DNA from: Chloroflexota bacterium
GTDB taxonomy: Bacteria; Chloroflexota; UBA11872
DNA: 64,000 nt
Reading direction: 5' to 3'
NCBI GenBank assembly: GCA_034422315.1
Contig: DAOUJT010000006.1
Coordinates: 5,911 to 69,910 of the forward strand
This document shows positions 9,701 to 43,040 of this stretch, in pieces. The notes under the pieces were generated by a model. It ran no database searches. It was not told the DNA's origin and saw nothing but the letters and a program-made list of their open reading frames with translations. Positions within the stretch are counted from its first letter, which is position 1; every line of letters begins with the position of its first letter. A program made the position numbers and the translations under genes.

Positions 9701-9740
9701 GTCCTCGGCGCGCGGCAACTGAATGCCGCGCGCCGAGGAC
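9701..9740. other. Perfect 16-bp GC-rich stem-loop (GTCCTCGGCGCGCGGC-aactgaat-GCCGCGCGCCGAGGAC) in a ~400-bp intergenic region upstream of the capsid-like gene.
   Basis: Seen directly in the sequence. No flanking T-run. Lies between divergent genes. Confidence 0.5.
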
Positions 9741-10863: not shown

Positions 10864-10895
10864 GGCTGGGCGATTCCAGGAGGAGGTAGCGGCAC

Positions 10896-11147
10896 ATGCA
10901 CGCTCCCATCATCTGGATCAGGCGCCGCCCGGCGCGGCGCCTGATCCACCGCTTTCCCGGCGCGGAGGGCGGACGCCAGATCCTGGTGATCACGCCGGAT
11001 CGCCAGGAAGCGCAGGACACGGCGCTGGCCATGCGCGAGCGCCAGGCGGCGCGGCTGCACGACCACGGTACAGCCGATCTGGACGCGCTGGACGCGCAGC
11101 GATCGGCCTGGGGCCGGCGCGGCGCCAAGCCCTCGGAGGCCAGCTGA
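10896..11147 (+). CDS. Small hypothetical protein (83 aa) within the phage-like module.
   Basis: Strong SD GGAGGAGG upstream. Its stop overlaps the next start (TGATG). Confidence 0.5.
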   Translation: MHAPIIWIRRRPARRLIHRFPGAEGGRQILVITPDRQEAQDTALAMRERQAARLHDHGTADLDALDAQRSAWGRRGAKPSEAS

Positions 11148-12370: not shown

Positions 12371-14749
12371 ATGCCACGCGGCAATCGCCCGCCCTATCCC
12401 TACGACTGCATGGTGGACGGGACGGGCCTGATGCTCAGCACCGGGGCCGAAGGCACGATGGCCTGGCACGAGCGCAAGCTGGATTTCTTTGCGCCGCGCG
12501 TCAGCCAGACCGACCAGTCCTATGCCCAGTTCCCGCCAGAAGACGAGACGACATGGGCGGTAGACGACCTCTCCGGCGGGTATGGCCAGCGGGTCGTTCC
12601 GCGCAGCGGGTCCACCGGCTACGCCCACGGGCTGGCCGACACGCGCATCCCACACCAGGTCACCCTGCCGCCGGACGTCGTGACAACGCCGATTACGTCG
12701 TCGGGAACGATTACGGACCACTTCGAACTGGACGACGCCATCTACGTGCTGGTGGGGTCCGCCGTCTACCGCTCGCGGGACGGCCGGACCTGGACGCTGG
12801 CCAAGGCGTTCGAGCCAGGAGTTACGGCGACGTCCGCCGCGGTCTTCAAGGGACGCGCGGAGCGGCCGATGGCCTTCGTGGGCGTAGGCGGCTCGGCGGC
12901 CGAGGAGCCGTTCTGGACGTTCGACGGCACGACCTGGACGCAGCACGCCGGTCAGCGCGCCAACCCGACGGCGGTGCTGCGAACCGGCGACAGCGGTCAA
13001 ACGTACGCCGATCTCACCGAGGCCGTCAGCGATGCGGACGCGGGGACGTACGGGCACCTGGACTCGCTGGGCGCGGTGCACGACGGCGCCTGGCTGCTGG
13101 TGGGAGGCAAGGCGCCGTTCGCGGCGGTGGCCATCGAGATGAACGTCGCCGCGAATGGCAACGCGACCGATCTGGCAGCGGAGTATTGGAACGGCTCGGT
13201 CTGGACGACCGTGGGCGGGCTAAGCGACGGCACGGCACAGGACGACAAAACGTTGGCCCGTGACGGCGAACTGAGGTTCGAGGAACCGGCGGGCTGGCGG
13301 CGGACGACGATTAACGGGATGGAGGCCTTCTGGCTGCGGCTGACCGTTGCGTCGGCGCTGGACTCCTCAACCCGCATCAACGAACTGGCGGTACGCGAAG
13401 TCCGCAAGGCCGACGCGTTTCTGGTGATCGGTTCGCGGGTGGCGCGGGTGAGCCGAGAGACTGGCGCGCCCAGGCTGTCGATCTCAATGGACGGTGGGTC
13501 GGCTTCCACCTGGACAGACGGCGCACCGGTGGGCGACGGCGCGTCCACCGCCAATGCGCTCCTGCGTCTGGGCGGCACGGCCTACGTGGTGAAGGAAGAC
13601 GGCCTCTACGCGCTGCGACCCGGCGCTGAAAGCGGCGCGGTGGCGGAGCACGTGTGGTCACAGCGGGCCCGGCATTCAAGTCCGCATAGCGGCCGCGGCG
13701 CCGCGGCCTGGCGCGGCTATCTGTGGCTCCCGATGGCGCAGGGGCTTTATCGATTCCGGTCAGGCGACCTGACGCCCACCGGCCCGGAACGTCTGCGCGA
13801 AAACAACTCGCCGATCCGGGGCCGCATCACCGCCTGCGCCGGCGACGCTCACTTCCTGTATGCAGCGCTGCGAGACGAGACCGGGCACACCACGCTGCTG
13901 GCGTTCAATCCCGACCAGCAGTCCTGGCATCCCCTGGCGCAGCTTGGGCGGGTGGACTGCCGGCACATGTGGGTGTCGGACCGGCCGGGGCCGAACCCGC
14001 GGTTGTACCTGGGGATCGGCGGATCGCTGGCCACGATCGTGCTGCCGCGGGGTTCGGCTAATCCGCTGCACGACCCCAACTGTCGCTTCGCGGCCAGCGC
14101 GGAGGTGTACCTTTCGCGCTTCGACGCGGCGTTCGCAGCGCAGCCCAAGGCCTTCCTGGCCCTGACGCTGAGCGGCGAGCGGCTGACGGCGTCCACCTGG
14201 GTGGATGCGGCCTACCGGCTGGCCGACGGCGCGCCGTTCAAACAACTGGGACGCTTTGCCGCCAGCGGTCAGCGCATCGAGTTTGGGCCGGAGGCCGCGG
14301 CGATGGCCATTGACCTGCGGCTGACGCTGCATAGCGACGACCCCGCGACTACGCCGGTAGTCCACGCAGTCTCGCTGGCTTACGCCATTCGCGCGGATTT
14401 CAAGCGGGTGTTTCAGTTCGTGGCGCGGATCGCGGACCAGACGCCGCTGCGCGACGGACGCCGCGACCGGCGGTCGGGCCGCGCGATCAAGCAGGCCATC
14501 GCCGCCGCGGCGGCCACGCGTGAGCCGGTGGTGCTGGTCAGCCCGGACGGTGAGCACATCGAAGCGCTGGTCCGCGGAGCCGAAGCCCAGGGGCGTCGCA
14601 GCGAGGCCGGGCGCGACCTGGAATGGCTGATGCCCGTGACCGCCACCGAATACCGGTCAACCGCCGGCACCGGCACGCACAACCGACTGGCGGCTTATGC
14701 CCACCAGGCCCAGGCCGCCTATCTGCATACCCAACTCGCCAGGCTCTAG
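12371..14749 (+). CDS. Large hypothetical structural protein (792 aa), possibly tail or tubular protein.
   Basis: Its ATG directly abuts the preceding stop. Size and position between capsid and tail fibre. No recognised motifs. Confidence 0.55.
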   Translation: MPRGNRPPYPYDCMVDGTGLMLSTGAEGTMAWHERKLDFFAPRVSQTDQSYAQFPPEDETTWAVDDLSGGYGQRVVPRSGSTGYAHGLADTRIPHQVTLPPDVVTTPITSSGTITDHFELDDAIYVLVGSAVYRSRDGRTWTLAKAFEPGVTATSAAVFKGRAERPMAFVGVGGSAAEEPFWTFDGTTWTQHAGQRANPTAVLRTGDSGQTYADLTEAVSDADAGTYGHLDSLGAVHDGAWLLVGGKAPFAAVAIEMNVAANGNATDLAAEYWNGSVWTTVGGLSDGTAQDDKTLARDGELRFEEPAGWRRTTINGMEAFWLRLTVASALDSSTRINELAVREVRKADAFLVIGSRVARVSRETGAPRLSISMDGGSASTWTDGAPVGDGASTANALLRLGGTAYVVKEDGLYALRPGAESGAVAEHVWSQRARHSSPHSGRGAAAWRGYLWLPMAQGLYRFRSGDLTPTGPERLRENNSPIRGRITACAGDAHFLYAALRDETGHTTLLAFNPDQQSWHPLAQLGRVDCRHMWVSDRPGPNPRLYLGIGGSLATIVLPRGSANPLHDPNCRFAASAEVYLSRFDAAFAAQPKAFLALTLSGERLTASTWVDAAYRLADGAPFKQLGRFAASGQRIEFGPEAAAMAIDLRLTLHSDDPATTPVVHAVSLAYAIRADFKRVFQFVARIADQTPLRDGRRDRRSGRAIKQAIAAAAATREPVVLVSPDGEHIEALVRGAEAQGRRSEAGRDLEWLMPVTATEYRSTAGTGTHNRLAAYAHQAQAAYLHTQLARL

Positions 14750-15813: not shown

Positions 15814-16163
15814 TGGGAGTCCCCGACCAGCCCGGCTCAATGGAGCCGAGTTCATTCGACGCGCCGGCCGACGCAAGTCCCAGCATTGACATGGATCACC
15901 CGAAGGAGGAACGAGCTTTGGAACCCGAAACCATTGGCATCATCACGGCCGTGACCGTGTATCTCGCGCGCGTGGTGCGCAACGAGATGGTGCGCTGGCG
16001 CAGCCGCGCCCGCGGCACCGACTCGGAAACTCGCGCGTTGCAGCTGCTGGAAAACATCGACCGCAGCCTGATGACGCATCACACCGAAATGACGCGCTAC
16101 CAGGCGTCGATCGCGGACTCGCTGGGCCAGATCAAAGGCCGGCTGGCCCAGGGACGCGTCTAG
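15813..16163 (+). CDS. Small protein (116 aa) with one hydrophobic helix (TIGIITAVTVYLARVV). Possible holin-like or membrane-active protein.
   Basis: TGATG overlap with the tail-fibre gene. Last gene before the terminator hairpins. Confidence 0.4.
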   Translation: MGVPDQPGSMEPSSFDAPADASPSIDMDHPKEERALEPETIGIITAVTVYLARVVRNEMVRWRSRARGTDSETRALQLLENIDRSLMTHHTEMTRYQASIADSLGQIKGRLAQGRV

Positions 16164-16196
16164 ACACGGCTGCGGGGCGTTGGCCCCGAGGCGTTG

Positions 16197-16231
16197 AAGG
16201 CCGGCTCCGTTTGGCGTACGGAGCCGGCCTT
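16197..16231. terminator. Perfect 14-bp stem-loop (AAGGCCGGCTCCGT-ttggcgt-ACGGAGCCGGCCTT), preceded by a second hairpin at 16172-16189. Candidate terminator of the phage-like operon.
   Basis: Located 34 nt after the stop at 16163. No strong U-tract. Confidence 0.45.
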
Positions 16232-16345
16232 CGGTCGTTAGAGCGGCGAATCAACGCTTCACGGAACGCCGGGGGCGGTCGGCGCCGTAGTAGGCTCAAG
16301 CGGCCGCGCAACGCGGCGCGGCGCAGCCCCAAGGAAGGGGCGGCG

Positions 16346-17977
16346 ATGGTCGGTATCCGAGGCCGAACCACGCGCGCCACGGGGCGCTTCTTTGGCTTGG
16401 CTGGCGCGACCCTGCTGACCGTCGTCTTGCTGGCCTGCGGCGCCGACGGGCACGAACCGGGCGCGACCGATCTGGCAGCGGTTGCCGCCGTCGTCGACCG
16501 GTTGGGCGCCTCCGACGATCCGCAACAGGAGTTTGCCGAACTTCCGGCTGAAACCCGCCAATCGGTCATTGACTACCTGAGGCTCGAAGAGACGGAGTCG
16601 TCTGGCGGCGGCGGTCCCACGACCCCGATCAACGCGCCGGAAAACTGCGAACGGCAGGCATCGGGGTACGTGGCTCGCAACGCGCACGGGCGCGAGCTCT
16701 GGACGTACGAGTCCATTACCGAGTGGTGCTGGGCCGACGGGATCATTACCACGGCGCCGGTCTTCACGGTCAACGCGAAGATCCATGCTCCCCTGTGGGA
16801 ATTCGCCGGCCACGTCGAACGGGAGGAATCCGGCGGCCAAGGCGAGGCGGAGCACAGCGACGTGGCGGAGGGTCTGTTCCGGCTCTGCCCGGAGGCTCCA
16901 GACAGTTGCGTTCAGGACGAAAGCGTTCGGGTCAAGAAACGGCAAGACGGCGACGGCGGATACGGCTCGGAGACCTCCGACATCGACCACAGCCCCGAAC
17001 CGTCAGGCCCTTGGACCCGCCCAGGGTATTACCTGGCGTTCCTCGTCTATATCCCGCTGGCCGCCACGCCGCTGATTGCCGGGGACGTCATGCGCCGGAA
17101 GTCGCCGCGCGGTTCCGCCGCCTGGGGGCTGGGGGTCGTGGCCACCGCCCTGGGCGTGCTGGTCTCGCTGTACGTCGCCGTGATGGTGGTCTATACGGCG
17201 ATCTTCAGCATCGGGTCGTTGTTCGGCTCGGATTCGACATCGGTGTCAATGACAACGAGCGTCGAGCGGGTCGAGGTGATGGAGGTCCCGATCGAGGAAA
17301 CGGTGGTGGCGCCGGTGGAGACGCCGGCGGTCGGGGGACAACCCGGAAGCTCGGCAGCGGCCAGTGGGCAATCCGGCGCCGCACCGCCGCCCAGAGATTC
17401 CGCAGGGCCAGGGCCGCGCGCCGACGAATGCACGGATCACGAGGTCAGGCTGACGGCGCGCAACCTATTCGGCCAGCCGGTGTGGAGCTACCGATCCGGA
17501 ACCTGGTGGTGTTGGGACGGGGTGGAGATTACGGACGAGCCCAACGTTTCCACGTGGACCTTGTCGCAGGGTCTGTTCTGGAACCCCGTGGACGACAATA
17601 CCGAGGAGTACGGCGGCCAGGGCGAGTGGACGCATAGGGACACGGTCTACCTGACCTTCGAACTCTGCGTCCCGTTGATTGGATGCACTCAGCGCGACAA
17701 TCAGTTGCTTCGAAAGTCCCAGCACGCCGACGGAACGTCCGCCGTCGACGACTTGCCAAGGCAGGATTCATATCCAGCCGCTTTGTTCTCGCTGATTGGT
17801 CCGCTGGTAGTGGCCCTGACGCTGCTGGTTATCGGTCGGGTGCTGCGGCGGGGCGCCGAACGCGGTGCGCTGGCCTGGGGGTTCGGCGTCAGCGCCACGT
17901 CGCTGGGAGTCTTGATGCTGACGCTCCTCGTTGTCACGGGGCTGTTCTTCGTAGCGGCCAGCCATACGGTGGGATAA
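16346..17977 (+). CDS. Lipoprotein or membrane protein carrying two copies of a W-x-[YF]-x-S-x-T-WCW-x-G Cys-containing domain. Each copy is followed by an R-rich/GS-AWG-GV TM segment.
   Basis: Lipobox LLAC after the signal peptide. Internal duplication: ELWTYESITEWCWADG... and PVWSYRSGTWWCWDG.... Each copy is followed by RR..RGSAAWG(L/F)GV..LGVL TM helices. Confidence 0.6.
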   Translation: MVGIRGRTTRATGRFFGLAGATLLTVVLLACGADGHEPGATDLAAVAAVVDRLGASDDPQQEFAELPAETRQSVIDYLRLEETESSGGGGPTTPINAPENCERQASGYVARNAHGRELWTYESITEWCWADGIITTAPVFTVNAKIHAPLWEFAGHVEREESGGQGEAEHSDVAEGLFRLCPEAPDSCVQDESVRVKKRQDGDGGYGSETSDIDHSPEPSGPWTRPGYYLAFLVYIPLAATPLIAGDVMRRKSPRGSAAWGLGVVATALGVLVSLYVAVMVVYTAIFSIGSLFGSDSTSVSMTTSVERVEVMEVPIEETVVAPVETPAVGGQPGSSAAASGQSGAAPPPRDSAGPGPRADECTDHEVRLTARNLFGQPVWSYRSGTWWCWDGVEITDEPNVSTWTLSQGLFWNPVDDNTEEYGGQGEWTHRDTVYLTFELCVPLIGCTQRDNQLLRKSQHADGTSAVDDLPRQDSYPAALFSLIGPLVVALTLLVIGRVLRRGAERGALAWGFGVSATSLGVLMLTLLVVTGLFFVAASHTVG

Positions 17978-18041
17978 GTCATGCCCAAACCCCGTGGACC
18001 GTGCCGCAACGCAACTCCAGGCAGGGTGGAGGAGCGAGGTA

Positions 18042-19166
18042 ATGCCAGCCGGGCCTGAGCCGCTGCTGGCGGGTATCGCCTACACCCTGCTGATCGTCGT
18101 CCCAATCTGCGCGGCGGCTTTTATCGCGGGGTGGGTACTCCGTCGGTCGGGCGGGCACGAGTCGCTGGTCTGGGGGTTGGGCGTCATCGTCACGGCTTGG
18201 GGCGCCGCCCTGGCCCTTGAGCATGGTCTGCGGATCCTGATCTTCGAAGCTCGGCTGTTTCCAGTCAGTGGGGTGACTATCACCGTGCTTTACTTCCCCC
18301 TGACCAACGCGATCCCACCGATTGTCGCGGCGCTCGGCGCGGGTGTGGTCATGTTGAAAGCGGCGGAGCGAGGCTCGACGACCTGGGCGCTTGGCGTTGT
18401 TGGCGTGGCCTTTGGTGCAGTTGGCCTTGTCAGGGCAATCGCCCCTGTGGCGATCTACCTGCCGACGGCTATTGGATCGCTGGGATTGGGATCCGTTGTC
18501 GAAGTCGAGACCGTGGTCACAGAGATTTCGGTTGAGGAATTCGACGCGCGATCCGCGTATAGGGACAGGGTGACGGTTGAGGACGGCGTGTGTGAGGTGC
18601 ATCGCCGGGGGATCGAAGGCCACAACCTGATCGGGCAGCGGCTGTGGACGTTTCACTCAGAGACACGGTGGTGCTGGAACGGCCGCGAAGTCGGCGCCGA
18701 CCCATCGTACTCGCCCACAGTCAGCGCCTCCGTGGATTCTCACATTCCCTTCGTAAGGGGTGGCTTTCCCGTGGATCCATCGCCTAACGATTCCGAGCTT
18801 CCCTGGGAGCTCGGCGACTGGGCGACCCAAGTCATCCACGTGTGCCCGCCGTTGCTGGAATGCGTGCAAAACGCATATGCGACCGTAGAAAAGCGCCAGT
18901 TTTCGGATGGGTCGACCACTGTGGACTACCCAAGTCTGACGGACCACTCGCAGCGCAGTCCCTGGCACCCGGTGCTGGGCCTGCTGCCTTCGATTGTCAT
19001 AAGTACGACGGCGCTGGTTACCGGTTGGATCCTGCTACGACGGTCCCGGCGCGGATCGGCGGCCTGGGGATTCGGTGTCGTCGCTGTTGGGCTGGGAGTG
19101 CTGGTCCCGATCCTGGTTGTTGTGGTCGGCGTGTTTTTCCTGACGACCAGCTACACCGTGTTTTAG
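18042..19166 (+). CDS. Paralogous membrane protein with one WCW Cys domain and three copies of the R..GS..WG.GV TM motif.
   Basis: RLWTFHSETRWCWNG. C-terminus LRRSRRGSAAWGFGVVAVGLGVLV...TTSYTVF nearly identical in pattern to the upstream gene's C-terminus ...AASHTVG. GGAGG SD. Confidence 0.6.
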   Translation: MPAGPEPLLAGIAYTLLIVVPICAAAFIAGWVLRRSGGHESLVWGLGVIVTAWGAALALEHGLRILIFEARLFPVSGVTITVLYFPLTNAIPPIVAALGAGVVMLKAAERGSTTWALGVVGVAFGAVGLVRAIAPVAIYLPTAIGSLGLGSVVEVETVVTEISVEEFDARSAYRDRVTVEDGVCEVHRRGIEGHNLIGQRLWTFHSETRWCWNGREVGADPSYSPTVSASVDSHIPFVRGGFPVDPSPNDSELPWELGDWATQVIHVCPPLLECVQNAYATVEKRQFSDGSTTVDYPSLTDHSQRSPWHPVLGLLPSIVISTTALVTGWILLRRSRRGSAAWGFGVVAVGLGVLVPILVVVVGVFFLTTSYTVF

Positions 19167-19595
19167 CGAGTCGCGGCCGCAACCCCAGGACGCGCCCAGC
19201 GCCAGCGCAGACAGGACAGGCCAAAACAGACCGGGGAGGGGCAGGCAGCCTTTGCGGGCAGGTTGGTCCGGGACGATGTCGGATGGGAAGTGGCCGGGAT
19301 AACGCTCCTGTAGGTCGGCGTTGGTGGCGATGGGGGTGAGGCGCAGGCCGGGTTTGTGTTCGAGGACGTACCAGGCGACGGGTGGACGACGGCGGCGGTC
19401 GGTGACGCGCGGCGACGTGGTTTCGACGGCGCGTGGATGAACATCCGCGGCAGGCTGCCAGCGCAGCAGGGCGGTGCGCTCGTCGAGTTGGGAGCGGGTG
19501 ATCAGTTCGATTCGGCAGTCGTCGAACTGGCTGCGCAGGAAGCGCGCCTCAGCGCTGTCGAAGTCACCGACCAGTTCGACCGACCTGTCGCGCAT
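19035..19595 (-). CDS. Hypothetical protein translationally coupled to tsaC. Its 3' end overlaps the convergent membrane-protein gene by ~130 bp, so the C-terminal extent is uncertain.
   Basis: ATGA start/stop overlap with tsaC. No recognised family. Confidence 0.4.
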   Translation of the reverse strand: MRDRSVELVGDFDSAEARFLRSQFDDCRIELITRSQLDERTALLRWQPAADVHPRAVETTSPRVTDRRRRPPVAWYVLEHKPGLRLTPIATNADLQERYPGHFPSDIVPDQPARKGCLPLPGLFWPVLSALALGASWGCGRDSLKHGVAGRQEKHADHNNQDRDQHSQPNSDDTESPGRRSAPGPS

Positions 19596-20218
19596 CAGTG
19601 GGGAGGCATGGGCGGGCGGACGGCGGGGACCACGGCCTGAATGGTCGGTGCGTCCACGGCGCCGGCGCGCAGGATCAGCGGGGGATCCTGCGCAAGGTCG
19701 ATCACGGTTGAGGGCGCGCCGGCCCCCGGGCCGCCATCCAACACCAGGTCCACCAGGGTTCCCACCGCGTCGGCGGCCGCCTGGGCGGTCATGGGCGGCG
19801 GCTCGGTGTGCAGATTGGCGCTGGTGCCCGTAAGCGGGGAACCGACGAGGCGTATCAGTTCGCGCACCACGCCGGAAGCGGGAACGCGGACGCCGACCGT
19901 TTCGCCAGGGCCAAGCAGCCGCCGGTCAACGCCCGGGCGGGCCGGCAGCACCAGCGTGACGGCGCCTGGCCAGAAGGCTTGAGCGAGGCGATGGGCGTTG
20001 GGCGACATGTGGGCGATCTCGCGAGCCTGGGCCGCGCTCTCGACAAGGATCGGGATGCCCCCGCCGGGGCCGCGGGTCTTGATGCGAAGGACGCGCGCCA
20101 CGGCCGGGGGGACGCGGATACTGGCGGCCAATCCGTAGAGGGTGTCCGTTGGGATGGCGGCAACCCCGCCGTCAGCCAGCAGTCTGGCGCACCGAGTTAC
20201 CGCAACTGTCGACGCCAT
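19595..20218 (-). CDS. tsaC: L-threonylcarbamoyladenylate synthase (YrdC/TsaC/Sua5 family).
   Basis: AIPTDTLYGLAASI...GPGGGIPILVE...WPGAVTLVLPA...SPLTGTSANLHTEPP is the YrdC domain signature. Confidence 0.85.
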   Translation of the reverse strand: MASTVAVTRCARLLADGGVAAIPTDTLYGLAASIRVPPAVARVLRIKTRGPGGGIPILVESAAQAREIAHMSPNAHRLAQAFWPGAVTLVLPARPGVDRRLLGPGETVGVRVPASGVVRELIRLVGSPLTGTSANLHTEPPPMTAQAAADAVGTLVDLVLDGGPGAGAPSTVIDLAQDPPLILRAGAVDAPTIQAVVPAVRPPMPPH

Positions 20219-27615: not shown

Positions 27616-28082
27616 CGCGGCCCGGCCGTAGCGCCGGTTTCTAGAACTCACGCGCCCCGTTCGTAGTGAGCCTATTCCATTCATGGTGCGCCGGTAGGAC
27701 CGTGAACGGCCCTGCGACCGGCTCAGAGCGAACGGAGCCACCACTGGGTCGCAGGTTCTGAAGCACGTGCCTTGCGCCCGTCCTCACTCCAAGCCGCCCA
27801 CTCACCGCTGGCCTCGCTGTTGCCCCGTGCCTCCTTCATCACGCCGAGAGCCTCGCCAAGAATCGCAAGTGCCGTCCTCGGTAAGGTCCAGCGGCGTCTG
27901 TAGTCCGCAGCGCGCGATACCGCATGACCAACGGCCAAGCGCCAGGCGATTCCACGCACGCCCAAGCCACTAGGCCAGGGGCAAACGCGTCAACTTCGCT
28001 TCAAGGATTGGCATCGTAGGTTGCCAGATACGATTGTGGCTCTGCGAGAATCCCGATGGTAAGCGTCAGGCCGACGACTCAA

Positions 28083-28664
28083 TTACGATGATGACATTAC
28101 CGCTACGATGACTACTAGTGTGGCTACTTGCCCGAGCAACAGCGCCCCTGTTGCGAGCCATAGCCCCCGGGAATGTTTGGCGTGGGATTCCGGAATCGAC
28201 CGCCTTAAGAAGCTGGTCATCTTCGAGATATCCCGCTTCGCTTCTTGCCGTGCCCTGGACTGAGCTTCGCGAAGCGCCGCAATTTCACGCTGCGCTTCGG
28301 CCTGCGCTGTAGATTGCGCCTCGCGGAGTGCGGAGATTTGCTCATCCAACCCATTGGCGGTGACAGCAAGTTCTGCCAGGATAGGGCTGTCAAGCAGTTT
28401 GGCGCCAGCCCTCAGAATCTCATCCGCGAGGCGCACATGCTGCGTTGCTTGGTCCAGCAAGGCCTTGGCGCTGGCGCTGTAGTCTTCGACCGCCCGCGCC
28501 GTCTCGGATAGCGACTGCGCGCGGGCCTCGGACGTCTTCTCCGCCGCGCGCAGCGACATGAGATGTCGGCCTGTCTGATTCAGCAACGTCTCGGCCTCCG
28601 CGAAGCGCCGCACGACCTCGTCCAATTCCAGCGAGCGGTCGTTGTTCAATCGCTCACCTACCAT
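28083..28664 (-). CDS. Coiled-coil protein with a C-terminal transmembrane anchor. Translationally coupled to the upstream helicase gene.
   Basis: Heptad-rich, with repeats AQSTAQAEAQREIAALREAQSRARQEAK. C-terminal TM GLWLATGALLLGQVATLVVIVAV. 11-nt overlap with the helicase ORF. Confidence 0.55.
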   Translation of the reverse strand: MVGERLNNDRSLELDEVVRRFAEAETLLNQTGRHLMSLRAAEKTSEARAQSLSETARAVEDYSASAKALLDQATQHVRLADEILRAGAKLLDSPILAELAVTANGLDEQISALREAQSTAQAEAQREIAALREAQSRARQEAKRDISKMTSFLRRSIPESHAKHSRGLWLATGALLLGQVATLVVIVAVMSSS

Positions 28665-31600
28665 GTCCGCCCTCCCATGGTTGCTCCGTCAGCGATCCAA
28701 GAAGCTGAACCGTCCTGGTAAGCCGATCGGTGAGCGCCAGTATGCACAATCCCAGTTCGCCGCCGCCCTCGAGCGACCGGTTGACGAGCTGCTGCCGAAC
28801 TGCAGGCGCTTTCCCTGACTGCTCCAAGGCAAGCGTCAATGCTGTCAGCGTGGCTAGCCTGCGCTCCGCCATCCAGTCGCGGAGACCTGCCGCTCCCTGT
28901 TCGATCCCATCGTCCGACACGCTGTAGTTCTCATGGGCAAGCGTGAACGAGGATGCAACGTGGGAGGTGAACTCGTTTAGGTTTCCGTCTGGGATTAACG
29001 CCTCGCTGAGGCCACGGGTCAGCAGCAGTCCCGGGTGGTCCGGGTAGGACTCGAGCAGGCGACCGCTGCTGCCGCGCAACTCGTGCGCCTCGGCAGCCCC
29101 TAGAGTGTCGGCCGTCGCCCGCAGCCAGGCGTCGTAGTCGAAGTACGGGCGGTCGATCAGCTTCTCTAGCACCGGCGCGATGTCGCCTTCCGTCAGGTAA
29201 TCCAGGATGCGTTTCCTGAATTCCGTATCGGGACGGGCCCGTGTAGCGTGGACGGCCAGCCAGAGTTCCCGAAGCGCACGCCGGCGTGCGCGCTCGATCT
29301 CGTCATAGACGAACTCCAGGAGCAGGCGCCCGCAGCCGAGCACGGCGTCACGCAGCGGCTCGGCCTCGTACCGGTTTGCCTTCCGGCGCTCGTTTTCGAC
29401 GCGTTGGATGTTGTGGCGCCGCACGTAATCGAGGTAATGCTCGACAACGGTCGGAGCGTCGATAAGATTCAAGTCCAAGGTGAACGACCTCGAACTCCAC
29501 TCAACCCAGTACTTACCAACGATGCCGAGGACTTGGAGCCGATAGACGGCGCGTTCACGGCTGGTCTGTGTTTCATTCTGCCAAGTGAGGTTGGCCGACT
29601 CCCTGTTGCCGAGGTCAGGAAGATCGTCCACTACTCGTCGCAGCGCCGCTTGGTCCTCTGGAACTCCCGGGAAGCTGTTGAGGTGCATCCAGAGTTGGTT
29701 GGTAACGTCATCCCGTTCACCCCAAGGCAAATATTTGACAACCCGACGGGCTTCCTCTATATCTCGGTCATCTGCGAGTAAACGTCGGATACGATCCTCG
29801 TCGTACTCGATCACCAGCAGAACACATTCAGCGTCCTGGCCGTCGCGTCCCGCACGTCCCACCTCTTGGTAATAGCCTTCGATGCTGCTGGGCATGCCGT
29901 AGTGGACGACGTACCGAATGTTGGGCTTATCGATGCCCATGCCAAACGCCTTGGTCGATACGAGTAACGGGCTTTCGTTCTCCATGAACTGACGTGCATT
30001 CTCACGTTTTTCCCTCTCCCAGTCGCCGGGAAAATGCCTAGGCGCAGTTCCCGAAAAAATCCTAGGATTCAGACCTATACCGGAGTACGAGTCCGCTAGC
30101 AAATCATCTATTTCGACTACGCCGAAACTGCCATTGACGTGGGGACAGAATACGATTCCGGAGTACGTGTTGTGACCCTGGGATTGGAAGAAATTCTGCT
30201 GCGGTATATTGAAACGAGGCGGCAACTGTGAAAGTGCGCCGCACAGCGCGGCGTGCGCGGATTCAGGCTCAGCTATGACGATTCGATAGTGTAGTTCCCG
30301 CCGATCGAAGCTCGCAGGCTTGACCACCGCATGCTCGGACTGTGAATCGTCGATGTCCAATTCCAGCAGCACCTCCTTGAGCACGGCTCGCGAAGCGGTA
30401 CCGGTGAGGGCCAGTACGGGAAGCTGCGAATCCCTGGCGACATCACGAACCGTCGCGCCAAGCCTGAGATAGGCGGGCCGAAAGTCGTGCCCCCACTCGC
30501 TGACGCAGTGAGCCTCGTCAATCACCGCAAAGTTGATTCCGCGTCCAGCGAATGCCGCCGCAGCCAACCGCTGCTGAAACTGCCGTTGCTGTAGCCGCTC
30601 CGGCGCGCAGAAGACGAAGAGCGCTTCACCGGTACCCACGGCCGCTAGTAGCGATGCTTGCTGTCCCTGTCTCGTCAGGTACGAGGAGAACTGCGCAACT
30701 CGCTCGATTCCATACCCGCGCAATCCCTCCGCCTGGTTTTCCATCAGGGCAATCAGTGGATCGATCACCAGCGAGAGGCCCGGCAAACACAGGCCGGCAA
30801 GCTGGTAGATCAGGCTTTTGCCCGCGCCGGTGGGCAGCAGCACGGCACAGTCGCGACCCTGCAGGATTTCCCTAATCGCCTCCATCTGACCTTCGCGGAA
30901 GTCCTTCTTGGCGAACACGGACCACAGCACCTGGCGCAGCGCCCGCGGGAGGCCCGCCGCGTCCGATGGTGACCGCGCATCGGCCGGCAGATGCTCCCAG
31001 ACGAGGTCCACGGGCAGAAATGCACTGCGGACGATGATCTGCGGCGGCTTGCCGAGCGCCGGCAGGCTCTCGCCGGGCGCGCGGTGGGAGTCAAGGCGGA
31101 TCACCAGGTCCGCACGTTCCCCATCCAGGTAAGCGCCATCCGCTTGCTCGCCGAGCGCCGTGTAGCCCTCATCCGGCGTGCGCTGGAGGTCAAGCGATAA
31201 TTCGCCGCCTTCCAGTTGAATGCGGTCCGGACAGGCGCCACTGCCGGCAATCACATCCAGGGCCAGCATGAGACTTAGGTAGCGCGGCAGAGACTCGACC
31301 GACCACGCCGAGCAGCCCTGAAGCTCGACGCGCCAACAGGGGCCCGAGAGCAGCCCTGCGCTCAGCGCCTCGGTGACCGCGGCCATGATGCGGTGCAACT
31401 CGACTGGGCCGTATGCCAACTGCCATCCCTGGCCAGTGGTAAGCGGCGGCGCGGCGGCCGACTGCAGCCGGCGGAACACTTCACCGAGCTTGGGTCCATC
31501 GCGCGTACGCATCTCGGCGGCAGGAATCCGTACAACGTCTATTCCGGACGCTCTCAGTGAGGCGTCACGTTCTTCGTCCTGCTCAATCGACTCGGTGTGC

Positions 31601-32451
31601 TGCTCGCCGTCGATCTCCACGACAAATGGCTGACGAGCCGGCGGGCAGATAAGGAAGTCAACGCGCCTTGACGTACCGTTGGGGTTCTCGATGAGTGCGT
31701 CCAATGAAGCCTGTGGGGTTGTCCAGCGCACGGCCCATGGCACGGTGGCCGCGAGCCATTTCGTAAAGAAGACCCTCTCTTCGTCCGAGTCGAACTCGAG
31801 CGTCGGGTCAGGGTCAGGGGGGCTGTCCCGCGTGACGATTCGTGGATCGAAAACCGGCAGCTGTAACGGAGTTCGGAGCTGTGGACTGAGGTCGCCAGGC
31901 AACGTCGAGGTCGTGACTTTGTCGCCCAACCCTACGTGTTGCAGCAGCGTGTGCTCGGCTGTGGGATCGAGCGGTGGGGCGCTTCCGCGTTGCAGCACTT
32001 TCCACATCACCGCGGCCAGACGCTTGGCGCCCTCGGCCGGATCCTGGGCGACGTCTGGGCGGGCGATCCAGCACTGTTCCAGGGCCGGCTGCCGCGTGGG
32101 AATGGCTCGCAGCGAACCACCCACGTTCACATAGCGGCACACCCATCCGTGGCGTGGCCTAGATGTTGCGTCTACCCACGCGGCGCGGCGCGGCAACGTG
32201 ACGGCCACTCCCGCCGCCGCTCGGCTGGTTGCGTCTACCTGCAAAGCACGGCGCGACAAATGGTCTCGTTCCGGCTGGGGCCTGCCATTGTCGTCATTCG
32301 ATCCATCAATGTTGACCAGTCCATTGCAGCGCGGCCAATTCCCACAGCCCCAGAAAGGTGAGCCGGCTCGCTTGCCGCGTCTGGCGACGCGCCGCACTGT
32401 TGCCGATCCGCAGATGGGGCATGGGGGCGGAGCAGCCACTTGCTGGATCAT
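28654..32451 (-). CDS. 1265-aa multidomain protein: an N-terminal topoisomerase-type C4 zinc ribbon, a DUF559 (Vsr-like endonuclease fold) domain, a RecQ-family DEAH helicase core, and a long uncharacterised C-terminal region.
   Basis: Zinc ribbon CPICGS...WGCGNWPRC. DUF559-like VDFLICPPARQPFVVEIDGEQH. Helicase motif I LLPTGAGKSLIYQL, motif II VIDEAHCVSEWGHDFRPAY, motif III LALTGTAS. Confidence 0.75.
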   Translation of the reverse strand: MIQQVAAPPPCPICGSATVRRVARRGKRAGSPFWGCGNWPRCNGLVNIDGSNDDNGRPQPERDHLSRRALQVDATSRAAAGVAVTLPRRAAWVDATSRPRHGWVCRYVNVGGSLRAIPTRQPALEQCWIARPDVAQDPAEGAKRLAAVMWKVLQRGSAPPLDPTAEHTLLQHVGLGDKVTTSTLPGDLSPQLRTPLQLPVFDPRIVTRDSPPDPDPTLEFDSDEERVFFTKWLAATVPWAVRWTTPQASLDALIENPNGTSRRVDFLICPPARQPFVVEIDGEQHTESIEQDEERDASLRASGIDVVRIPAAEMRTRDGPKLGEVFRRLQSAAAPPLTTGQGWQLAYGPVELHRIMAAVTEALSAGLLSGPCWRVELQGCSAWSVESLPRYLSLMLALDVIAGSGACPDRIQLEGGELSLDLQRTPDEGYTALGEQADGAYLDGERADLVIRLDSHRAPGESLPALGKPPQIIVRSAFLPVDLVWEHLPADARSPSDAAGLPRALRQVLWSVFAKKDFREGQMEAIREILQGRDCAVLLPTGAGKSLIYQLAGLCLPGLSLVIDPLIALMENQAEGLRGYGIERVAQFSSYLTRQGQQASLLAAVGTGEALFVFCAPERLQQRQFQQRLAAAAFAGRGINFAVIDEAHCVSEWGHDFRPAYLRLGATVRDVARDSQLPVLALTGTASRAVLKEVLLELDIDDSQSEHAVVKPASFDRRELHYRIVIAEPESAHAALCGALSQLPPRFNIPQQNFFQSQGHNTYSGIVFCPHVNGSFGVVEIDDLLADSYSGIGLNPRIFSGTAPRHFPGDWEREKRENARQFMENESPLLVSTKAFGMGIDKPNIRYVVHYGMPSSIEGYYQEVGRAGRDGQDAECVLLVIEYDEDRIRRLLADDRDIEEARRVVKYLPWGERDDVTNQLWMHLNSFPGVPEDQAALRRVVDDLPDLGNRESANLTWQNETQTSRERAVYRLQVLGIVGKYWVEWSSRSFTLDLNLIDAPTVVEHYLDYVRRHNIQRVENERRKANRYEAEPLRDAVLGCGRLLLEFVYDEIERARRRALRELWLAVHATRARPDTEFRKRILDYLTEGDIAPVLEKLIDRPYFDYDAWLRATADTLGAAEAHELRGSSGRLLESYPDHPGLLLTRGLSEALIPDGNLNEFTSHVASSFTLAHENYSVSDDGIEQGAAGLRDWMAERRLATLTALTLALEQSGKAPAVRQQLVNRSLEGGGELGLCILALTDRLTRTVQLLGSLTEQPWEGGHGR

Positions 32452-32654
32452 CGGTCTTCGCTAGCCTCTACGGTGGTAGGAGCGCACTGTCGGGTGTCAC
32501 TGAGTCATCTAGCCCCGTCATGATCATGGGGGAATGACGCTGGGCTACGCAAAGGTCTCCGGCGGGAATGTCAATAGCGGATGGTTGCTCTCAGTCCGAC
32601 GAAGGGCGAGCGGGGCAGCCCGACCGAGCGCGGAGCTTCGTCACCAACTACGAA

Positions 32655-40626: not shown

Positions 40627-41355
40627 TCAGCGCGGCTTCAGGCTGTGCCCATCGAAGTCATATGCGTCGCTGTTGCGCTCGGCCACGACCCTTAGCGCAT
40701 CCGTGATGACACGGTCCAGCTCAAACTCCGAGTCCGGCTGGCCCACTCTGGCGAACGGAATCGTGGACTGTTCCGGGCTGGCTGATACAAGCCCGAGGTA
40801 GAAGCTCTCAAATTGCTCGTCGCGGCCTGCTGGGTCTTGGCGGCCCGTAAACAGCCTGAGGCCGCGGTGAGCATTCTCAATTGTCGGAGAGCGGCGGCTC
40901 GTTCCGTCGTGGCGGGCACCTTCGTCAAATACGAAGAGTCCAACCAGCGTGGCGTATGGAAATCGACGGTGAAGCGTGACGGCCTCGAACAGCATGTCAC
41001 CTCGCCGGTTAGTGAAGTTCTTCTGGTAGTTCTTCGTTCGCAGGTCGGGGAAGCTGATGCACTTGACCGAGAACGCAAGAAGTAAGCCGGCCTCTTCGGT
41101 CGCCCAGGTCACGTCGACTCGCTTATCACCAATCCCTCCAGCCATCCGGCGCTCGGCTCCAGAAACGCGGTTGCCGCTGGCAACAGGGCGTGCGCCAGAT
41201 AATCCGCGCTGTCGCAGACACTCGGCGACCACTTGGGCAATGGCGGCCGACATCAACTCCGAATAGCGCTTCTTGTCGCTGGCGCGTGCTTTAAGGGTCG
41301 GTTTCGGCTCGAGCCCACAGAGCACATTGAGCAGTCGCTGATGATCGGTGCTCAT
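40627..41355 (-). CDS. Putative Type II restriction endonuclease (novel, no family recognised). Candidate PD-(D/E)xK residues lie around GDKRVDV...EEAGLLLAFSVK.
   Basis: Immediately downstream of, and overlapping by 4 nt, an N6-adenine DNA methyltransferase gene. Size 242 aa. Assignment by genomic context. Confidence 0.45.
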   Translation of the reverse strand: MSTDHQRLLNVLCGLEPKPTLKARASDKKRYSELMSAAIAQVVAECLRQRGLSGARPVASGNRVSGAERRMAGGIGDKRVDVTWATEEAGLLLAFSVKCISFPDLRTKNYQKNFTNRRGDMLFEAVTLHRRFPYATLVGLFVFDEGARHDGTSRRSPTIENAHRGLRLFTGRQDPAGRDEQFESFYLGLVSASPEQSTIPFARVGQPDSEFELDRVITDALRVVAERNSDAYDFDGHSLKPR

Positions 41356-43040
41356 TGCGAGCGAGTCCGCGCGAACCTGCGCGAGCGGAGTATGTCCCGC
41401 GTCTTTCTTACCTGCGATAAGAGGACGGCGCGCGATGCACGTTGCTGACCGAGCAGTACTTCATCGACCCTGGCCCGGATGTCGTCATGCGCCGCAGAGC
41501 GAAGCAGCCGTCCCGTGGATGCTTCCATGGACCGCAATTCACGCGCGCAACGCTCAATAGTCCGAGGCGATGGGACAGGTAGCTGTGCTGCTTCACGAGG
41601 CTCCATTTTCAAAACCCCTCCGCCGTATGAGCGGCCAGCAATTTCGGCGCCGAGAGCGGTAACGGAATTGAGCGCCGCAAGAGGCAGCAGTTCCCAGTCG
41701 CGTCGAAACGGTGCGTGGAGGCGCAGTCCATGTACTGAGTTCAGGGCATGAACTCTGGCCGTGTTGGCAATCAGGCGTGGAGAGTCGTGGCTCATATAAG
41801 TGACGAACATGTCGGGGAGCTTCGGCAGTGGAACGCTCCACCAGGGACGACGAACCCGACACTTGTAGGCCTGATGCACTTTCTGCTGCTCACCGATTTC
41901 TACGTACGTGCGGGCAGCTGGGGATCGCAGGGCGTCGCCCGGATAGAAGAGTTGCGTTTTGGAGTTTCGTTCCGTGAGCTCACGATGAACGTCGCGCGAG
42001 TACGCAAGGTTCTTGAGAGCACCTGATCCTGGCGGAAGCACATCGATGAGATCGCTCGGACCAAGATTCAACCGGTTCGCTTGAGCCTTTGACATTCGAA
42101 AGTACGTGTTGTTCCCAGTTACAGCGCCGAGGTGAACTGTGCCCCACCGAGACAGGGGCACGAAGTCCTGTGAATCAAGCAACTCTCTGTAGAAGTCGAA
42201 AGATTCTCCAGCGACCAACGCCGACGTCCATTTCGTCTCCTCCGGGGCAGGAGTCCAGTTCCTGCGCGTGACCTGGTGACGTTGCAAACTCTCCAAGTCT
42301 TTTGCCTGCACGAGTTCGATGGAATCGGTGGAGCCTCGTCCTTCGGCGAGCAGCAGAACAATCTCGCTGATCACACCGGGAAACACTCGCGTTTCGAATG
42401 TGACCAGTGTGACCCGGGCAAACTGGCACATCAGGTATCGGCGGACGGGGGCGGCGTACCTGACATGTAGAAGCTCGGCGGGAAGAACCAGTGCCAAGCG
42501 CCCGTCCCTATTGAGGAATTGAGAGGCGTGCACAACAAATGCCGCCCAGGAATTGGCTAGGCCATCAAGCTGAACGCCTCCCGCAGCCGCGGCGCGTTGC
42601 GCCTTCGTCCTGGCGTTGCCAGCGAACGACTGGTACCGCACAAACGGTGGGTTTCCGATCACGGCGTCGGCCGTCGGCGTCGGCCGTATGTCAAAGAAGT
42701 CGGCTGCCTCAACTCGCGCATTGGCGTGTAGCGATGCAATGGTTGAACGCGCGATGTCGCTGGCGACCGCGTCAAGTTCGAAGCCCAAGATTGAGGCAGC
42801 CGGCTGCTCTCCGAGATCGCTCAGGTTCTTTAGCCGCTGCGAGGCCGCGGCCAGAAAAGCTCCTTCTCCGCAAGAGGGTTCGACAACCGTGTCACGTGAT
42901 CCGCGGATGGCCCATTCCGCTAGAAAGTTCGCGATCTGCGGAGGCGTATAGAAGGCCCCGCGAGCCTTCAACGGCGAAACAGCGACGGTCAGACATCCTT
43001 CACGACTGATGAAAAAACCGTAGCACGCATGGACCGCCAC
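41352..43040 (-). CDS. N6-adenine-specific DNA methyltransferase (gamma-class, Type II/IIG-like).
   Basis: GAFYTPPQIANFL (AdoMet-binding motif I region) and IGNPPFVRY (catalytic NPPF motif IV). Confidence 0.8.
   Translation of the reverse strand: MAVHACYGFFISREGCLTVAVSPLKARGAFYTPPQIANFLAEWAIRGSRDTVVEPSCGEGAFLAAASQRLKNLSDLGEQPAASILGFELDAVASDIARSTIASLHANARVEAADFFDIRPTPTADAVIGNPPFVRYQSFAGNARTKAQRAAAAGGVQLDGLANSWAAFVVHASQFLNRDGRLALVLPAELLHVRYAAPVRRYLMCQFARVTLVTFETRVFPGVISEIVLLLAEGRGSTDSIELVQAKDLESLQRHQVTRRNWTPAPEETKWTSALVAGESFDFYRELLDSQDFVPLSRWGTVHLGAVTGNNTYFRMSKAQANRLNLGPSDLIDVLPPGSGALKNLAYSRDVHRELTERNSKTQLFYPGDALRSPAARTYVEIGEQQKVHQAYKCRVRRPWWSVPLPKLPDMFVTYMSHDSPRLIANTARVHALNSVHGLRLHAPFRRDWELLPLAALNSVTALGAEIAGRSYGGGVLKMEPREAAQLPVPSPRTIERCARELRSMEASTGRLLRSAAHDDIRARVDEVLLGQQRASRAVLLSQVRKTRDILRSRRFARTRSQ

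Follow-up and report, generated by a model that had tools for sequence, protein, structure and literature searches.

Nuclease-NTPase systems are a widespread defense class and work through protein complexes (bioRxiv 10.1101/2025.07.10.664194). Hachiman HamAB, Hna, Nhi, Upx and AbpAB are grouped together as nuclease-NTPase or nuclease-helicase systems (bioRxiv 10.1101/2025.07.10.664194; PMC12278908), and the Hachiman helicase keeps its nuclease in check for as long as there is no DNA damage (PMC12278908). PsyrTA/RqlHI behaves as a toxin-antitoxin pair (PMC4670107). The gene pair described here is, judged from its sequence and genomic context, a credible, unnamed defense candidate of the nuclease-helicase kind, for which we infer a mechanism.

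The pair lies in a window of 64,000 nt, the whole stretch of DNA analyzed, from a Chloroflexota bacterium (UBA11872; assembly GCA_034422315.1, contig DAOUJT010000006.1, positions 5,911-69,910 of the forward strand). A sequence-only reading of the window had proposed two translationally coupled ORFs, and both ORF calls and direct reading of the sequence bear this out (Table 1). The ORFs overlap by 11 nt (28654-28664), and the Shine-Dalgarno-like motif ahead of the partner ATG lies within the 3' end of the large ORF. Spacing between the two genes stays tight in related loci (-14 to +20 nt), and the large protein and its partner are therefore expected to be co-produced. The partner lies directly beside the helicase gene in 92 of 94 related loci, and the other two loci are both cut by a contig end. 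Because the pair recurs in this way, it is a real two-gene unit and not a chance pair of ORFs. The partner family comprises 114 clusters, every one of three distant partner homologs adjoins a DUF559-RecQ protein, and comparison of the related loci found no third gene common to all of them. The flanks, first put at ~470 and ~200 bp, measure 467 bp to a downstream HAMP/HisKA sensor kinase gene and 203 bp to an upstream HAD-type hydrolase gene.

Table 1. Features of the two-gene cassette and its flanks. Positions are those of the window.
Feature	Position	Strand	Remarks
Downstream spacer, 467 bp	27616..28082		Part of recently exchanged segment; no gene or known RNA indicated
Partner gene (193 aa, ATG start)	28083..28664	-	Amphipathic helical, coiled-coil-like, C-terminal TM helix; from ORF and alignment of homologous partners
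Predicted C-terminal TM helix of partner, aa 171-190	28095..28154	-	Kyte-Doolittle mean 2.2
Translational-coupling junction	28654..28676	-	Shine-Dalgarno-like GGGAGGG at 28670-28676, partner ATG at 28664, 11-nt overlap with end of large ORF
Large gene (1265 aa, ATG start)	28654..32451	-	Zn-ribbon, N-terminal alpha/beta, Vsr/DUF559, middle alpha/beta, RecQ-family core, winged helix, TPR-like; from ORF and domain searches
C-terminal region, aa ~901-1265	28657..29751	-	Helical linker, winged-helix-like element (~aa 951-994), TPR-like alpha-solenoid
RecQ-family SF2 helicase core, aa ~505-900	29752..30939	-	Motifs 0, I (PTGAGKS), II (DEAH), aromatic-rich loop (HCVSEWGHDFR), III (TGTAS), VI (QEVGRAGRD)
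Middle alpha/beta domain, aa ~340-500	30952..31434	-	Between nuclease and helicase
Vsr/DUF559-type PD-(D/E)xK nuclease domain, aa ~220-332	31456..31794	-	E225, R263-x-D265, E279-x-D281-G-x-Q-H285, D292-x-x-R295-D296
Conserved N-terminal alpha/beta domain, aa ~85-200	31852..32199	-	Motifs W-x-D-A-T, G-W-x-C-R-Y, Q-C-W-I-A-R, L-Q-R-G-S-A-P-P
Topoisomerase-type C4 zinc ribbon, aa 11-48	32308..32421	-	C11, C14, C36, C42; PF01396
Upstream spacer, 203 bp	32452..32654		Between HAD-type hydrolase and large gene; presumed promoter site

The zinc ribbon predicted at the start of the large protein stands in part. All four of its cysteines are present and many homologs carry a precomputed PF01396 match, but the Zn_ribbon_Top1 score in this protein is below threshold (19.4 bits; Pfam cut-off 32), and the ribbon varies across the family: of 157 members, 41-69% have its cysteines, a range to which start-codon miscalls contribute. 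Two conserved alpha/beta domains flank the nuclease, one on either side. The proposed DUF559 fold scores above its Pfam cut-off (aa 264-329; 27.8 bits vs 20.6). The nuclease signature is 94-99% conserved among 157 full-length members sharing 31-100% identity, and the check for dead catalytic residues gave 99% conservation for D265, E279, D281, H285 and D292. By this measure the catalytic-type signature is intact.

The complete RecQ-type DEAH core, with motifs I, II and III, is likewise found as predicted (DEAD, aa 520-690; Helicase_C, aa 813-871). TIGR00614 (recQ_fam) clears its cut-off of 219.8 with 264 bits, and E. coli RecQ (1oyw) is the top sequence match in a PDB profile search (2.4e-85). 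The helicase motifs are ~100% conserved in the 157 members, and the core appears fully intact, including its aromatic-rich loop. The C-terminus, of which ~350 aa had been left unassigned, indeed has no Pfam match in its ~365 residues but resolves to a winged helix and a TPR-like solenoid; R1056 and R1079 in this region are invariant.

A rival reading is a housekeeping or SOS enzyme of DNA repair and recombination. It would be an accessory RecQ paralog with its own nicking nuclease, acting on stalled forks, mismatches or recombination intermediates, and the partner would be a structural cofactor. RecQ-family membership by TIGR00614, the role of Vsr as a repair nuclease (PMC3424549) and the public annotation of members as 'RecQ family ATP-dependent DNA helicase' suit such an enzyme, whereas the absence of the RQC Zn-binding and HRDC domains and a RecQ equivalog score of 286 (cut-off 640) do not; on these grounds an identification as RecQ proper was rejected.

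The partner had been read as a coiled-coil protein with a C-terminal membrane anchor. Its helical character holds (P+G content 3.6%; heptad-type 3.5-residue periodicity, z = 2.7), as does the hydrophobic segment in this particular protein, whose mean hydropathy was taken over 19 residues. The anchor is not family-wide, however, as just 22 of the 82 unique partners have one, and membrane localization therefore cannot be the general mechanism.

A large enzyme gene with a small partner gene tightly coupled behind it is also what a toxin-antitoxin-like addiction module would look like. The nuclease-helicase would be genotoxic alone and neutralized by its co-translated partner, as RqlI constrains RqlH, and the pair would persist as a selfish or stress-responsive module, with phage defense secondary or absent. 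The PADLOC PsyrT model does match the helicase (237 bits), the pair is mobile, with a patchy distribution, and RqlH and RqlI are toxin-antitoxin-like, physically interacting proteins (PMC4670107). The toxicity of RqlH, however, is mediated by its C-terminal PRTase domain (PMC4670107), which the large protein lacks. The partner is similar to no PADLOC antitoxin model. In classic type II toxin-antitoxin pairs the antitoxin gene usually comes first, which also counts against a module of this kind. We consider it unlikely; since many toxin-antitoxin systems are defense systems, it overlaps with the explanation that we favor below and does not exclude it.

The family is large, with 925 clusters at 50% identity, and is spread over several phyla, with members in Actinomycetota, Acidobacteriota and Proteobacteria MAGs. 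A homolog search gave ~72 full-length proteins before scores fell sharply to generic RecQ. The neighborhoods, whose variability the sequence-only reading had named as a check, differ between loci: no synteny is conserved across the ~11 distinct genomic contexts inspected, about half of which, this window included, are housekeeping surroundings, and integrases or transposases adjoin several loci. GC content is 60.5%, against ~65-70% in the surroundings. In a comparison with a syntenic relative (L081), a single genome pair, the dS of the helicase gene, at 0.164, is 4-6 times lower than that of five flanking genes (0.67-0.96), its dN/dS is 3-5 times higher (0.35-0.41 against 0.06-0.14), and its GC content is about 6 points lower. 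The low dS, raised dN/dS and lower GC indicate recent exchange and fast evolution.

The downstream spacer follows the cassette in this comparison. It is 88.4% identical to L081, compared with 78-85% for the flanking genes, and its divergence of ~0.12 is in line with the cassette dS of 0.16. A conserved ORF within it is not likely because the two sequences differ by indels of -2 and +1, and the spacer has no Rfam match. The upstream spacer is 81.8% identical to L081 and presumably holds the promoter; no sigma-70 consensus was found in it, an outcome that is uninformative for this high-GC host.

For a repair enzyme, the housekeeping flanks seen here and at several other loci would be natural surroundings, as would those of one family locus that adjoins LexA and a DinB-type polymerase. 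The lack of conserved synteny, the anomalous GC content, the substitution rates and a count of neighboring defense-model matches about ten times that of canonical recQ all argue against a repair role, which we regard as quite unlikely.

Recent exchange, together with the adjoining integrases and transposases, could point instead to a helicase-nuclease with which an integrative element replicates, transfers or homes, and which has no part in host immunity. The homing endonuclease I-Bth0305I uses the same nuclease fold, and the phage family phrog_33220 has DUF559 and a RecQ-like core. This function is nevertheless very improbable, given that searches of 2.9 million viral contigs, 50,697 phage genomes and 72,556 plasmids gave no family member, that the cassette in the window has neither terminal repeats nor a tRNA or integrase at its flanks, and that the two genes travel alone with no conserved element backbone. 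Because of that absence from viral contigs, phages and plasmids, mobility is deduced from context and dS only.

The gene neighborhoods favor defense. The 133 nearest neighbors match 190 PADLOC models (E<=1e-10) and a size-matched control of canonical-recQ neighbors matches 18, counts that refer to matched models rather than ORFs and to two locus sets differing in taxonomy and contig source. The Pfam content of the neighbors is typical of defense islands. As initially stated, no named system can be assigned: PADLOC has no model that extends over the C-terminal region or the partner, and it gives just one marginal match in the N-terminal region (PDLC02868, to the nuclease core, E 8.8e-4). The earlier proposal of a candidate two-gene defense cassette is thus supported, with function read from context. 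Because the pair moves between genomes and is often found with anti-phage genes around it, it is probably a so far undescribed system of defense against phages. Among the explanations considered, a horizontally mobile two-gene cassette for anti-phage (or anti-mobile-DNA) defense of the nuclease-helicase class is the most likely, and we favor it with reasonable though not high confidence.

The large protein joins the nuclease and the RecQ-type helicase in one chain, followed by the winged helix and TPR-like solenoid, and in such a defense system it would be the effector. The zinc ribbon and RecQ core may load the enzyme on single-stranded or branched DNA, with phage replication or recombination intermediates and damaged DNA as candidate substrates. 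ATP-driven 3'-5' translocation would then carry the nuclease along to nick or degrade the target. The TPR-like domain and the partner might regulate the enzyme, either by restraining it until a trigger arrives or by scaffolding and localization, which in this window would be to the inner membrane through the TM tail of the partner. The cassette has no methyltransferase, so the system would discriminate by DNA structure or by a phage-derived trigger, not by modification. Its action could end in the direct clearance of invader DNA or in abortive infection.

Among described systems, Hhe is reportedly a single-protein defense with helicase and Vsr-type endonuclease domains, and so resembles the large protein, in which a single chain likewise unites a helicase with a nuclease of Vsr/DUF559 type. 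Hhe differs in that it reportedly has an SF1 (Upf1-like) helicase and a C-terminal nuclease, and it is not known to have a partner gene. No Hhe model is among the best 25 of the 31 PADLOC matches of the full protein, or among those of the N-terminal region at E<=1. Sister proteins of 1461 aa of the Hymenobacter type, and phrog_33220, share the DUF559 signature, middle domain, RecQ core and winged-helix part at 31% identity. They lack the zinc ribbon and the first N-terminal domain, their C-terminal end differs, and the gene downstream of the Hymenobacter-type sister is not detectably related to the partner. The Hymenobacter locus also adjoins GmrSD and a C5-methylase fragment.

DpdF, of the Dpd 7-deazaguanine DNA modification/restriction cluster, gives the best PADLOC matches, up to 317 bits on the helicase core. 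The weak match of its long sub-model PDLC02868 to the nuclease core suggests that some 'DpdF-like' proteins share the DUF559 and RecQ-like arrangement. The C-terminal region and partner have no DpdF counterpart, and no dpd genes are in the neighborhood; DpdF was rejected as an identity at an NCBIfam equivalog score of 176.7 (cut-off 550), aligned to the first helicase lobe only. PsyrTA/RqlHI resembles the pair in combining a RecQ-like helicase with a small co-operonic partner. The large protein differs by its N-terminal DUF559 module and TPR-like C-terminus, and PsyrT/RqlH was rejected for want of a PRTase and of a partner like the PsyrA/RqlI models. E. coli RecQ has the same core, with motif 0, DEAH box, aromatic-rich loop and motif VI; the large protein differs from it by a 500-aa N-terminal nuclease module and by the genomic behavior of a mobile accessory gene.

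None of the PADLOC models of the Hachiman-type systems matches the large protein in its N- or C-terminal region, and none matches the partner. In the large protein, a nuclease of the Vsr/DUF559 clade shares a single chain with a motor that is a bona fide RecQ-family core, and this chain also carries two extra alpha/beta domains, the winged helix and the TPR-like solenoid; the second gene encodes a small helical protein, sometimes membrane-anchored, in place of a nuclease or NTPase. The pair nevertheless resembles HamAB, Hna, Nhi, Upx and AbpAB in combining a PD-(D/E)xK nuclease with an SF1/SF2 NTPase, in its compact one- or two-gene operon within defense islands and without a methyltransferase, and in the regulation through protein-protein complexes that would be expected of it.

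The large gene and its small partner were recovered as open reading frames (ORFs) where the sequence-only reading had placed them (table). They overlap by 11 nt, and a GGGAGGG sequence within the 3' end of the large ORF precedes the partner ATG. The non-coding flanks are also as described, with 467 bp to a HAMP/HisKA sensor kinase gene and 203 bp to a gene for a HAD-type hydrolase. The genes around the cassette encode the hydrolase, CofD, a polyprenyl synthase, the sensor kinase and a periplasmic binding protein, both in the window and in L081, a syntenic relative with the cassette at the same site. Promoter and terminator scans returned nothing on the strand of the cassette, and such scans are uninformative for a high-GC non-model organism.

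Positions of the gene pair and of other features in the window and at related loci (L-numbers are other loci or contigs).
Locus	Feature	Positions	Strand	Description
Window	Large gene	28654-32451	-	ORF, 1265 aa
Window	Partner gene	28083-28664	-	ORF, 193 aa
Window	In-frame 63-nt tandem duplication	32165-32259	-	aa ~65-96 of the large protein
Window	Copies in the tandem duplication	32165-32196, 32228-32259		78% identical
Window	Low-GC stretch	41001-43000		GC 0.59-0.60 vs ~0.67 for the window
Window	ORF	41352-43040	-	562 aa
Window	ORF	54192-58457	-	1421 aa
Window	Strong positive AT skew	55-59 kb		0.20-0.30
L085	GmrSD-type gene	12260-14080		
L091	GmrSD-type gene	10581-12392		
L131	GmrSD-type gene	4846-6117		
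L132	GmrSD-type gene	4466-5818		
L087	GmrSD-type gene	3773-5878		
L004	GmrSD-type gene	15817-17769		
L087	Inverted copies of the whole pair	8001-12547, 16074-20068		74-kb contig
L090	Split large gene	6265-10011		936-aa and 308-aa ORFs, 5.95-Mb genome

Library scans with Pfam and NCBIfam reproduced the domain calls made from the sequence for the large protein. The DUF559 domain (aa 264-329) scores 27.8 bits against a Pfam cut-off of 20.6, DEAD and Helicase_C domains were found, and the protein belongs to the RecQ family by TIGR00614 recQ_fam (264.1 bits, cut-off 219.8). The topoisomerase-type Zn-ribbon (aa 11-48) stands less securely: all four cysteines are in place and a match is recorded for many homologues, but the score of 19.4 bits is below the Pfam cut-off of 32. 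The cysteines occur in only 41-69% of 157 full-length family members, partly because start codons have been miscalled; the DNA upstream of the L081 gene, for example, encodes the same MIQQ..CPICG start.

The active sites were compared across the same 157 members, which are 31-100% identical. The nuclease signature E225, D265, E279-x-D281-G-x-Q-H285, D292-x-x-R295-D296 is 94-99% conserved and aligns with NGO0050; the nuclease residues, whose conservation the sequence-only reading had proposed to check, are retained, with D265, E279, D281, H285 and D292 at 99% and R295 at 97%. The Pfam DUF559 score, a Vsr-like fold and the acidic/His active-site signature place the domain in the Vsr/DUF559/DUF2726 clade, which a survey of PD-(D/E)xK enzymes defined by three structures (PMC3424549). 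The helicase core is complete, as claimed. Motifs 0 (F518/Q522), I (G542-K545-S546), II (DExH, D645-E646-x-H648), III (T683/T685) and VI (Q862/R866/R869) and the aromatic-rich loop (W653/H655/F657/R658) are intact, their residues being kept in 96-100% of the members. Judged by these residues, the large protein is a predicted nuclease with an intact Vsr-type signature joined to an intact RecQ ATPase/translocase signature. The architecture is common to about 72 full-length homologues (30-87% identical), the alignment is conserved from end to end, and scores drop sharply from 538 to 175 bits at the onset of generic RecQ proteins.

The C-terminus had been described as unassigned, and the last ~365 residues indeed have no match in the library scans, but the region can be modelled. 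Confident AlphaFold models were obtained for parts of the large protein from 58-sequence alignments. Residues 885-1265 (pLDDT 89) are modelled as a winged-helix-like element followed by an all-α solenoid, and residues 60-505 (pLDDT 88.6, pTM 0.89) as sub-domains forming one compact body. These models indicate a TPR-like C-terminus and a compact N-terminal module. A Foldseek search of the PDB with the C-terminal model returned nothing significant, no specific relative was found for the α/β domains flanking the nuclease (aa ~85-200 and ~340-500), and sequence relatives of the large protein in the PDB are confined to the RecQ core. The tandem duplication falls in the linker that follows the Zn-ribbon, where it repeats an 'RRAxxVDATSR' motif; it is missing from the 87%-identical large protein of L081 (P0003).

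A small same-strand ORF abuts the helicase gene in 92 of 94 family loci, at a spacing of -14 to +20 nt, and the two exceptions end at a contig edge. A partner profile HMM finds 70 of these partners, and the rest are mostly divergent helical proteins with a terminal TM helix. Small downstream genes at distant loci are homologous to the window's partner; the partner family has over 110 clusters with a typical length of 163 aa, and three distant homologues on Mb-scale contigs each directly follow a DUF559-RecQ protein, again with an overlap of 11 nt. The partner is obligatory, translationally coupled and helical. A toxin-antitoxin-like addiction module is a rival explanation of the pair, less well supported than a defence role.

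In the window's partner the C-terminal TM anchor noted earlier is present, as a hydrophobic helix at aa 171-190. The sequence upstream of it is helical and amphipathic, with a 3.5-residue periodicity (z = 2.7; 1.6-4.7 in 18 homologues). The membrane anchor is recurrent but not universal, since only 22 of 82 unique complete partners have the TM end. Many of the 60 TM-less partners (L083-L172) end instead in a short basic/hydrophobic tail, such as ...RQKKKLGL, …PEKIKKKLGW or ...PIIVKRWF, and such tails might bind membranes or DNA. An internal repeat 'ALREAQS...ALREAQS' at aa ~112-139 corresponds to 14 aa inserted in comparison with L081 and L082, a sign that the helical region of the partner varies rapidly in length.

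The family is widespread. An exhaustive search with the C-terminal region gave 925 clusters (50% identity) at E<=1e-3 and 613 at E<=1e-10; in full-length matches, which are ~1100-1460 aa long, this region is always at the end of the protein. Members occur in Actinomycetota (including Gaiellaceae), Bryobacterales, Proteobacteria MAGs and many soil, freshwater and marine metagenomes. A scan of genome contigs with the full-length alignment drew generic RecQ motifs, and its only true members were L001 and L002; viral and metagenome scans therefore relied on the family-specific C-terminal alignment (A5). Searches of IMG/VR viral contigs, sequenced phages and plasmids yielded no members.

Gene contexts differ from locus to locus. 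Housekeeping genes flank the cassette in the window, L081, L082, L089, L002, L090 and L092, and integrases or transposases adjoin it in L001, L085 and L087. The cassette in L086 adjoins genes for LexA and a DinB-type polymerase; the view of the large protein as an accessory repair enzyme is less well supported than one of defence. The 64-kb window has no rRNA or tRNA genes, and a search of it for element boundaries revealed no terminal or direct repeats, tRNA genes or integrase. A function for a mobile element likewise has less support.

The GC content of the cassette is ~60.5%, against ~65-70% in its surroundings. Between the window and L081, the helicase gene is 92.2% identical in nucleotide sequence and the downstream spacer 88.4%, against 78-85% for flanking genes. 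Five flanking genes have Nei-Gojobori dS values of 0.67-0.96, compared with 0.164 for the helicase gene and 0.379 for the partner. The cassette has therefore been exchanged between lineages well after the two diverged, a result that concerns this single genome pair. With a dN/dS of 0.35-0.41, compared with 0.06-0.14 in the flanks, the cassette evolves under weaker or diversifying constraint. The 88% conservation of the 467-bp downstream spacer had raised the suspicion of a hidden RNA or small gene. This was rejected, as its divergence of ~0.12 equals the dS of the cassette (0.16) and indels of -2 and +1 break the frame. The spacer has no Rfam match. Its conservation follows from the exchange history of the cassette, and a hidden gene is not needed to explain it.

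Several irregularities were seen in the same sequences. The inverted copies of the pair in L087 flank two SF1-helicase genes (AAA_11/AAA_30) and may reflect either a genuine inverted duplication or an error of assembly; L100 and L116 also have this SF1 helicase next to the cassette. The large gene of L090, whose partner is intact, may have decayed to a pseudogene, or its split may reflect a frameshift or a sequencing error. Elsewhere in the window, the 562-aa ORF in the second low-GC stretch may be another horizontally acquired gene, and the 1421-aa ORF coincides with the strong positive AT skew, an unusual composition that suggests a repetitive or biased protein.

Association with defence islands was assessed by scanning up to three of the nearest ORFs on each side of family loci and of control loci with PADLOC, a library of defence-system models, at E<=1e-10. 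The control loci were those of canonical recQ genes, drawn from the full-length-alignment genome scan. The 133 family neighbours match 190 PADLOC models and the 127 control neighbours 18, these counts being of models and not of ORFs and the two sets differing in taxonomy. Models matched by family neighbours include ZacC, HEC-01A/B, AriA, MkoA, type III MTase, AbiLi and several PDC candidates. The Pfam content of the family neighbours is of the kind usual in defence islands, with SF1/SF2 helicases, integrases, AAA_15/21 and PD-(D/E)xK, HNH and PLD nucleases. The L088 cassette, for example, neighbours Hachiman, an AAA_15/21 ATPase and an SF1 helicase-nuclease, the L091 cassette an Eco57I-like enzyme and a PIN protein, and GmrSD is near the cassette in L085, L087 and L091.

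Clustering of neighbour ORFs revealed no universal third gene. The commonest is a GmrSD-type (type IV restriction) enzyme, found at 5 of 59 loci. At four loci, from two different subclades, its gene follows the cassette directly on the same strand, and it also adjoins the gene for a 1461-aa DUF559 + RecQ protein of Hymenobacter, a sister of the family. The GmrSD-type gene may work together with the cassette or may just have been transferred along with it as part of an island.

The candidate two-gene defence system proposed from the sequence is real as a finding, and its interpretation holds up; a defence role for the pair is likely. The enzyme would load on ssDNA or branched DNA through its Zn-ribbon, RecQ core and winged helix, translocate 3'-5' and nick or degrade the DNA, while the TPR-like domain and the partner may restrain, scaffold or localise it. 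Because the cassette is without a methyltransferase, self and foreign DNA would be discriminated by DNA structure or a phage trigger. A more specific reading, improbable as a whole, would give the system a new organising principle, in which a small tail-anchored or membrane-peripheral coiled-coil partner holds the RecQ-Vsr enzyme at the inner membrane. The enzyme would intercept phage DNA where it enters, or would be let go onto the nucleoid only once the partner had sensed infection. The TM helix and the short basic/hydrophobic tail would be two solutions for membrane association, and the TPR-like solenoid a docking or sensor surface.

If a defence role is confirmed, the nuclease-helicase class gains a system of ~900 clusters (50% identity) in several phyla, mostly in uncultured soil, freshwater and marine bacteria. 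The family would also be the first in which the fusion of a bona fide RecQ-type core with a Vsr-type nuclease serves immunity. RecQ helicases, well known as genome caretakers, would then have been recruited for conflict repeatedly (PsyrT/RqlH, DpdF-like proteins and the DUF559-RecQ family), and a small partner with alternating membrane-anchor forms would offer a tractable handle on the control of potentially self-destructive enzymes. Members are annotated as 'RecQ family ATP-dependent DNA helicase', which hides them from surveys of defence systems.

The sequence-only reading could not assign the pair to a named system, and comparisons with canonical RecQ, DpdF, PsyrTA/RqlHI and Hachiman agree. 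The large protein scores 286 against a cut-off of 640 for the bacterial RecQ equivalog TIGR01389 and 238 against 1015 for PRK11057; it has no Pfam RecQ_Zn_bind, RQC or HRDC match, its winged-helix element being recognizable only at the fold level. The NCBIfam DpdF equivalog gives 176.7 bits (cut-off 550) and aligns to aa 520-744 only, strong PADLOC 'DpdF' matches are confined to the helicase core, and no dpd cluster (DpdA/B/C, restriction genes) lies beside the cassette in the window, L081 or other inspected loci. RqlH/PsyrT is defined by a toxic PRTase domain (PMC4670107). The large protein has no PRTase Pfam match, its best PsyrT stretch covers model positions 8-200 of 689, and the window's partner, which gives coiled-coil noise alone in PADLOC, is unrelated to PsyrA/RqlI. 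No HamA or HamB model is among the PADLOC matches listed, and the DUF559 nuclease is fused to the helicase, whereas HamA (DUF1837) of Hachiman is separate. Restriction-modification was rejected, as neither gene of the two-gene unit has a methyltransferase domain. No PADLOC model covers the C-terminal region or the partner, and the N-terminal region has only a marginal match to one long 'DpdF' sub-model (E 8.8e-4). Searches of the literature on RecQ, DUF559, Vsr and defence turned up no description of the architecture.

The PADLOC 'DpdF' sub-model PDLC02868 and the phage protein family phrog_33220 have matches to the DUF559 core as well as to the RecQ core of the large protein, so the nuclease + RecQ-like arrangement exists under other labels in defence and phage libraries. 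These two and the Hymenobacter protein form a wider DUF559 + RecQ-like superfamily with the family described here, but lack the Zn-ribbon, the first N-terminal domain, the family's C-terminal end and the partner; the gene downstream of the Hymenobacter sister has no detectable homology to the partner. Precedents for the proposed mechanism are Hachiman, whose helicase keeps the nuclease in check until DNA is damaged (PMC12278908), and nuclease-NTPase systems, which act as protein complexes (bioRxiv 10.1101/2025.07.10.664194). The pair resembles nuclease-NTPase defence systems, a class and not a homologous family, in having a predicted nuclease and an NTPase encoded together, here DUF559 and a RecQ ATPase in one chain, and in its defence-island enrichment (190 vs 18 PADLOC models). 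As a defence candidate of the nuclease-helicase type, the two-gene unit is credible, widespread and as yet without a name.
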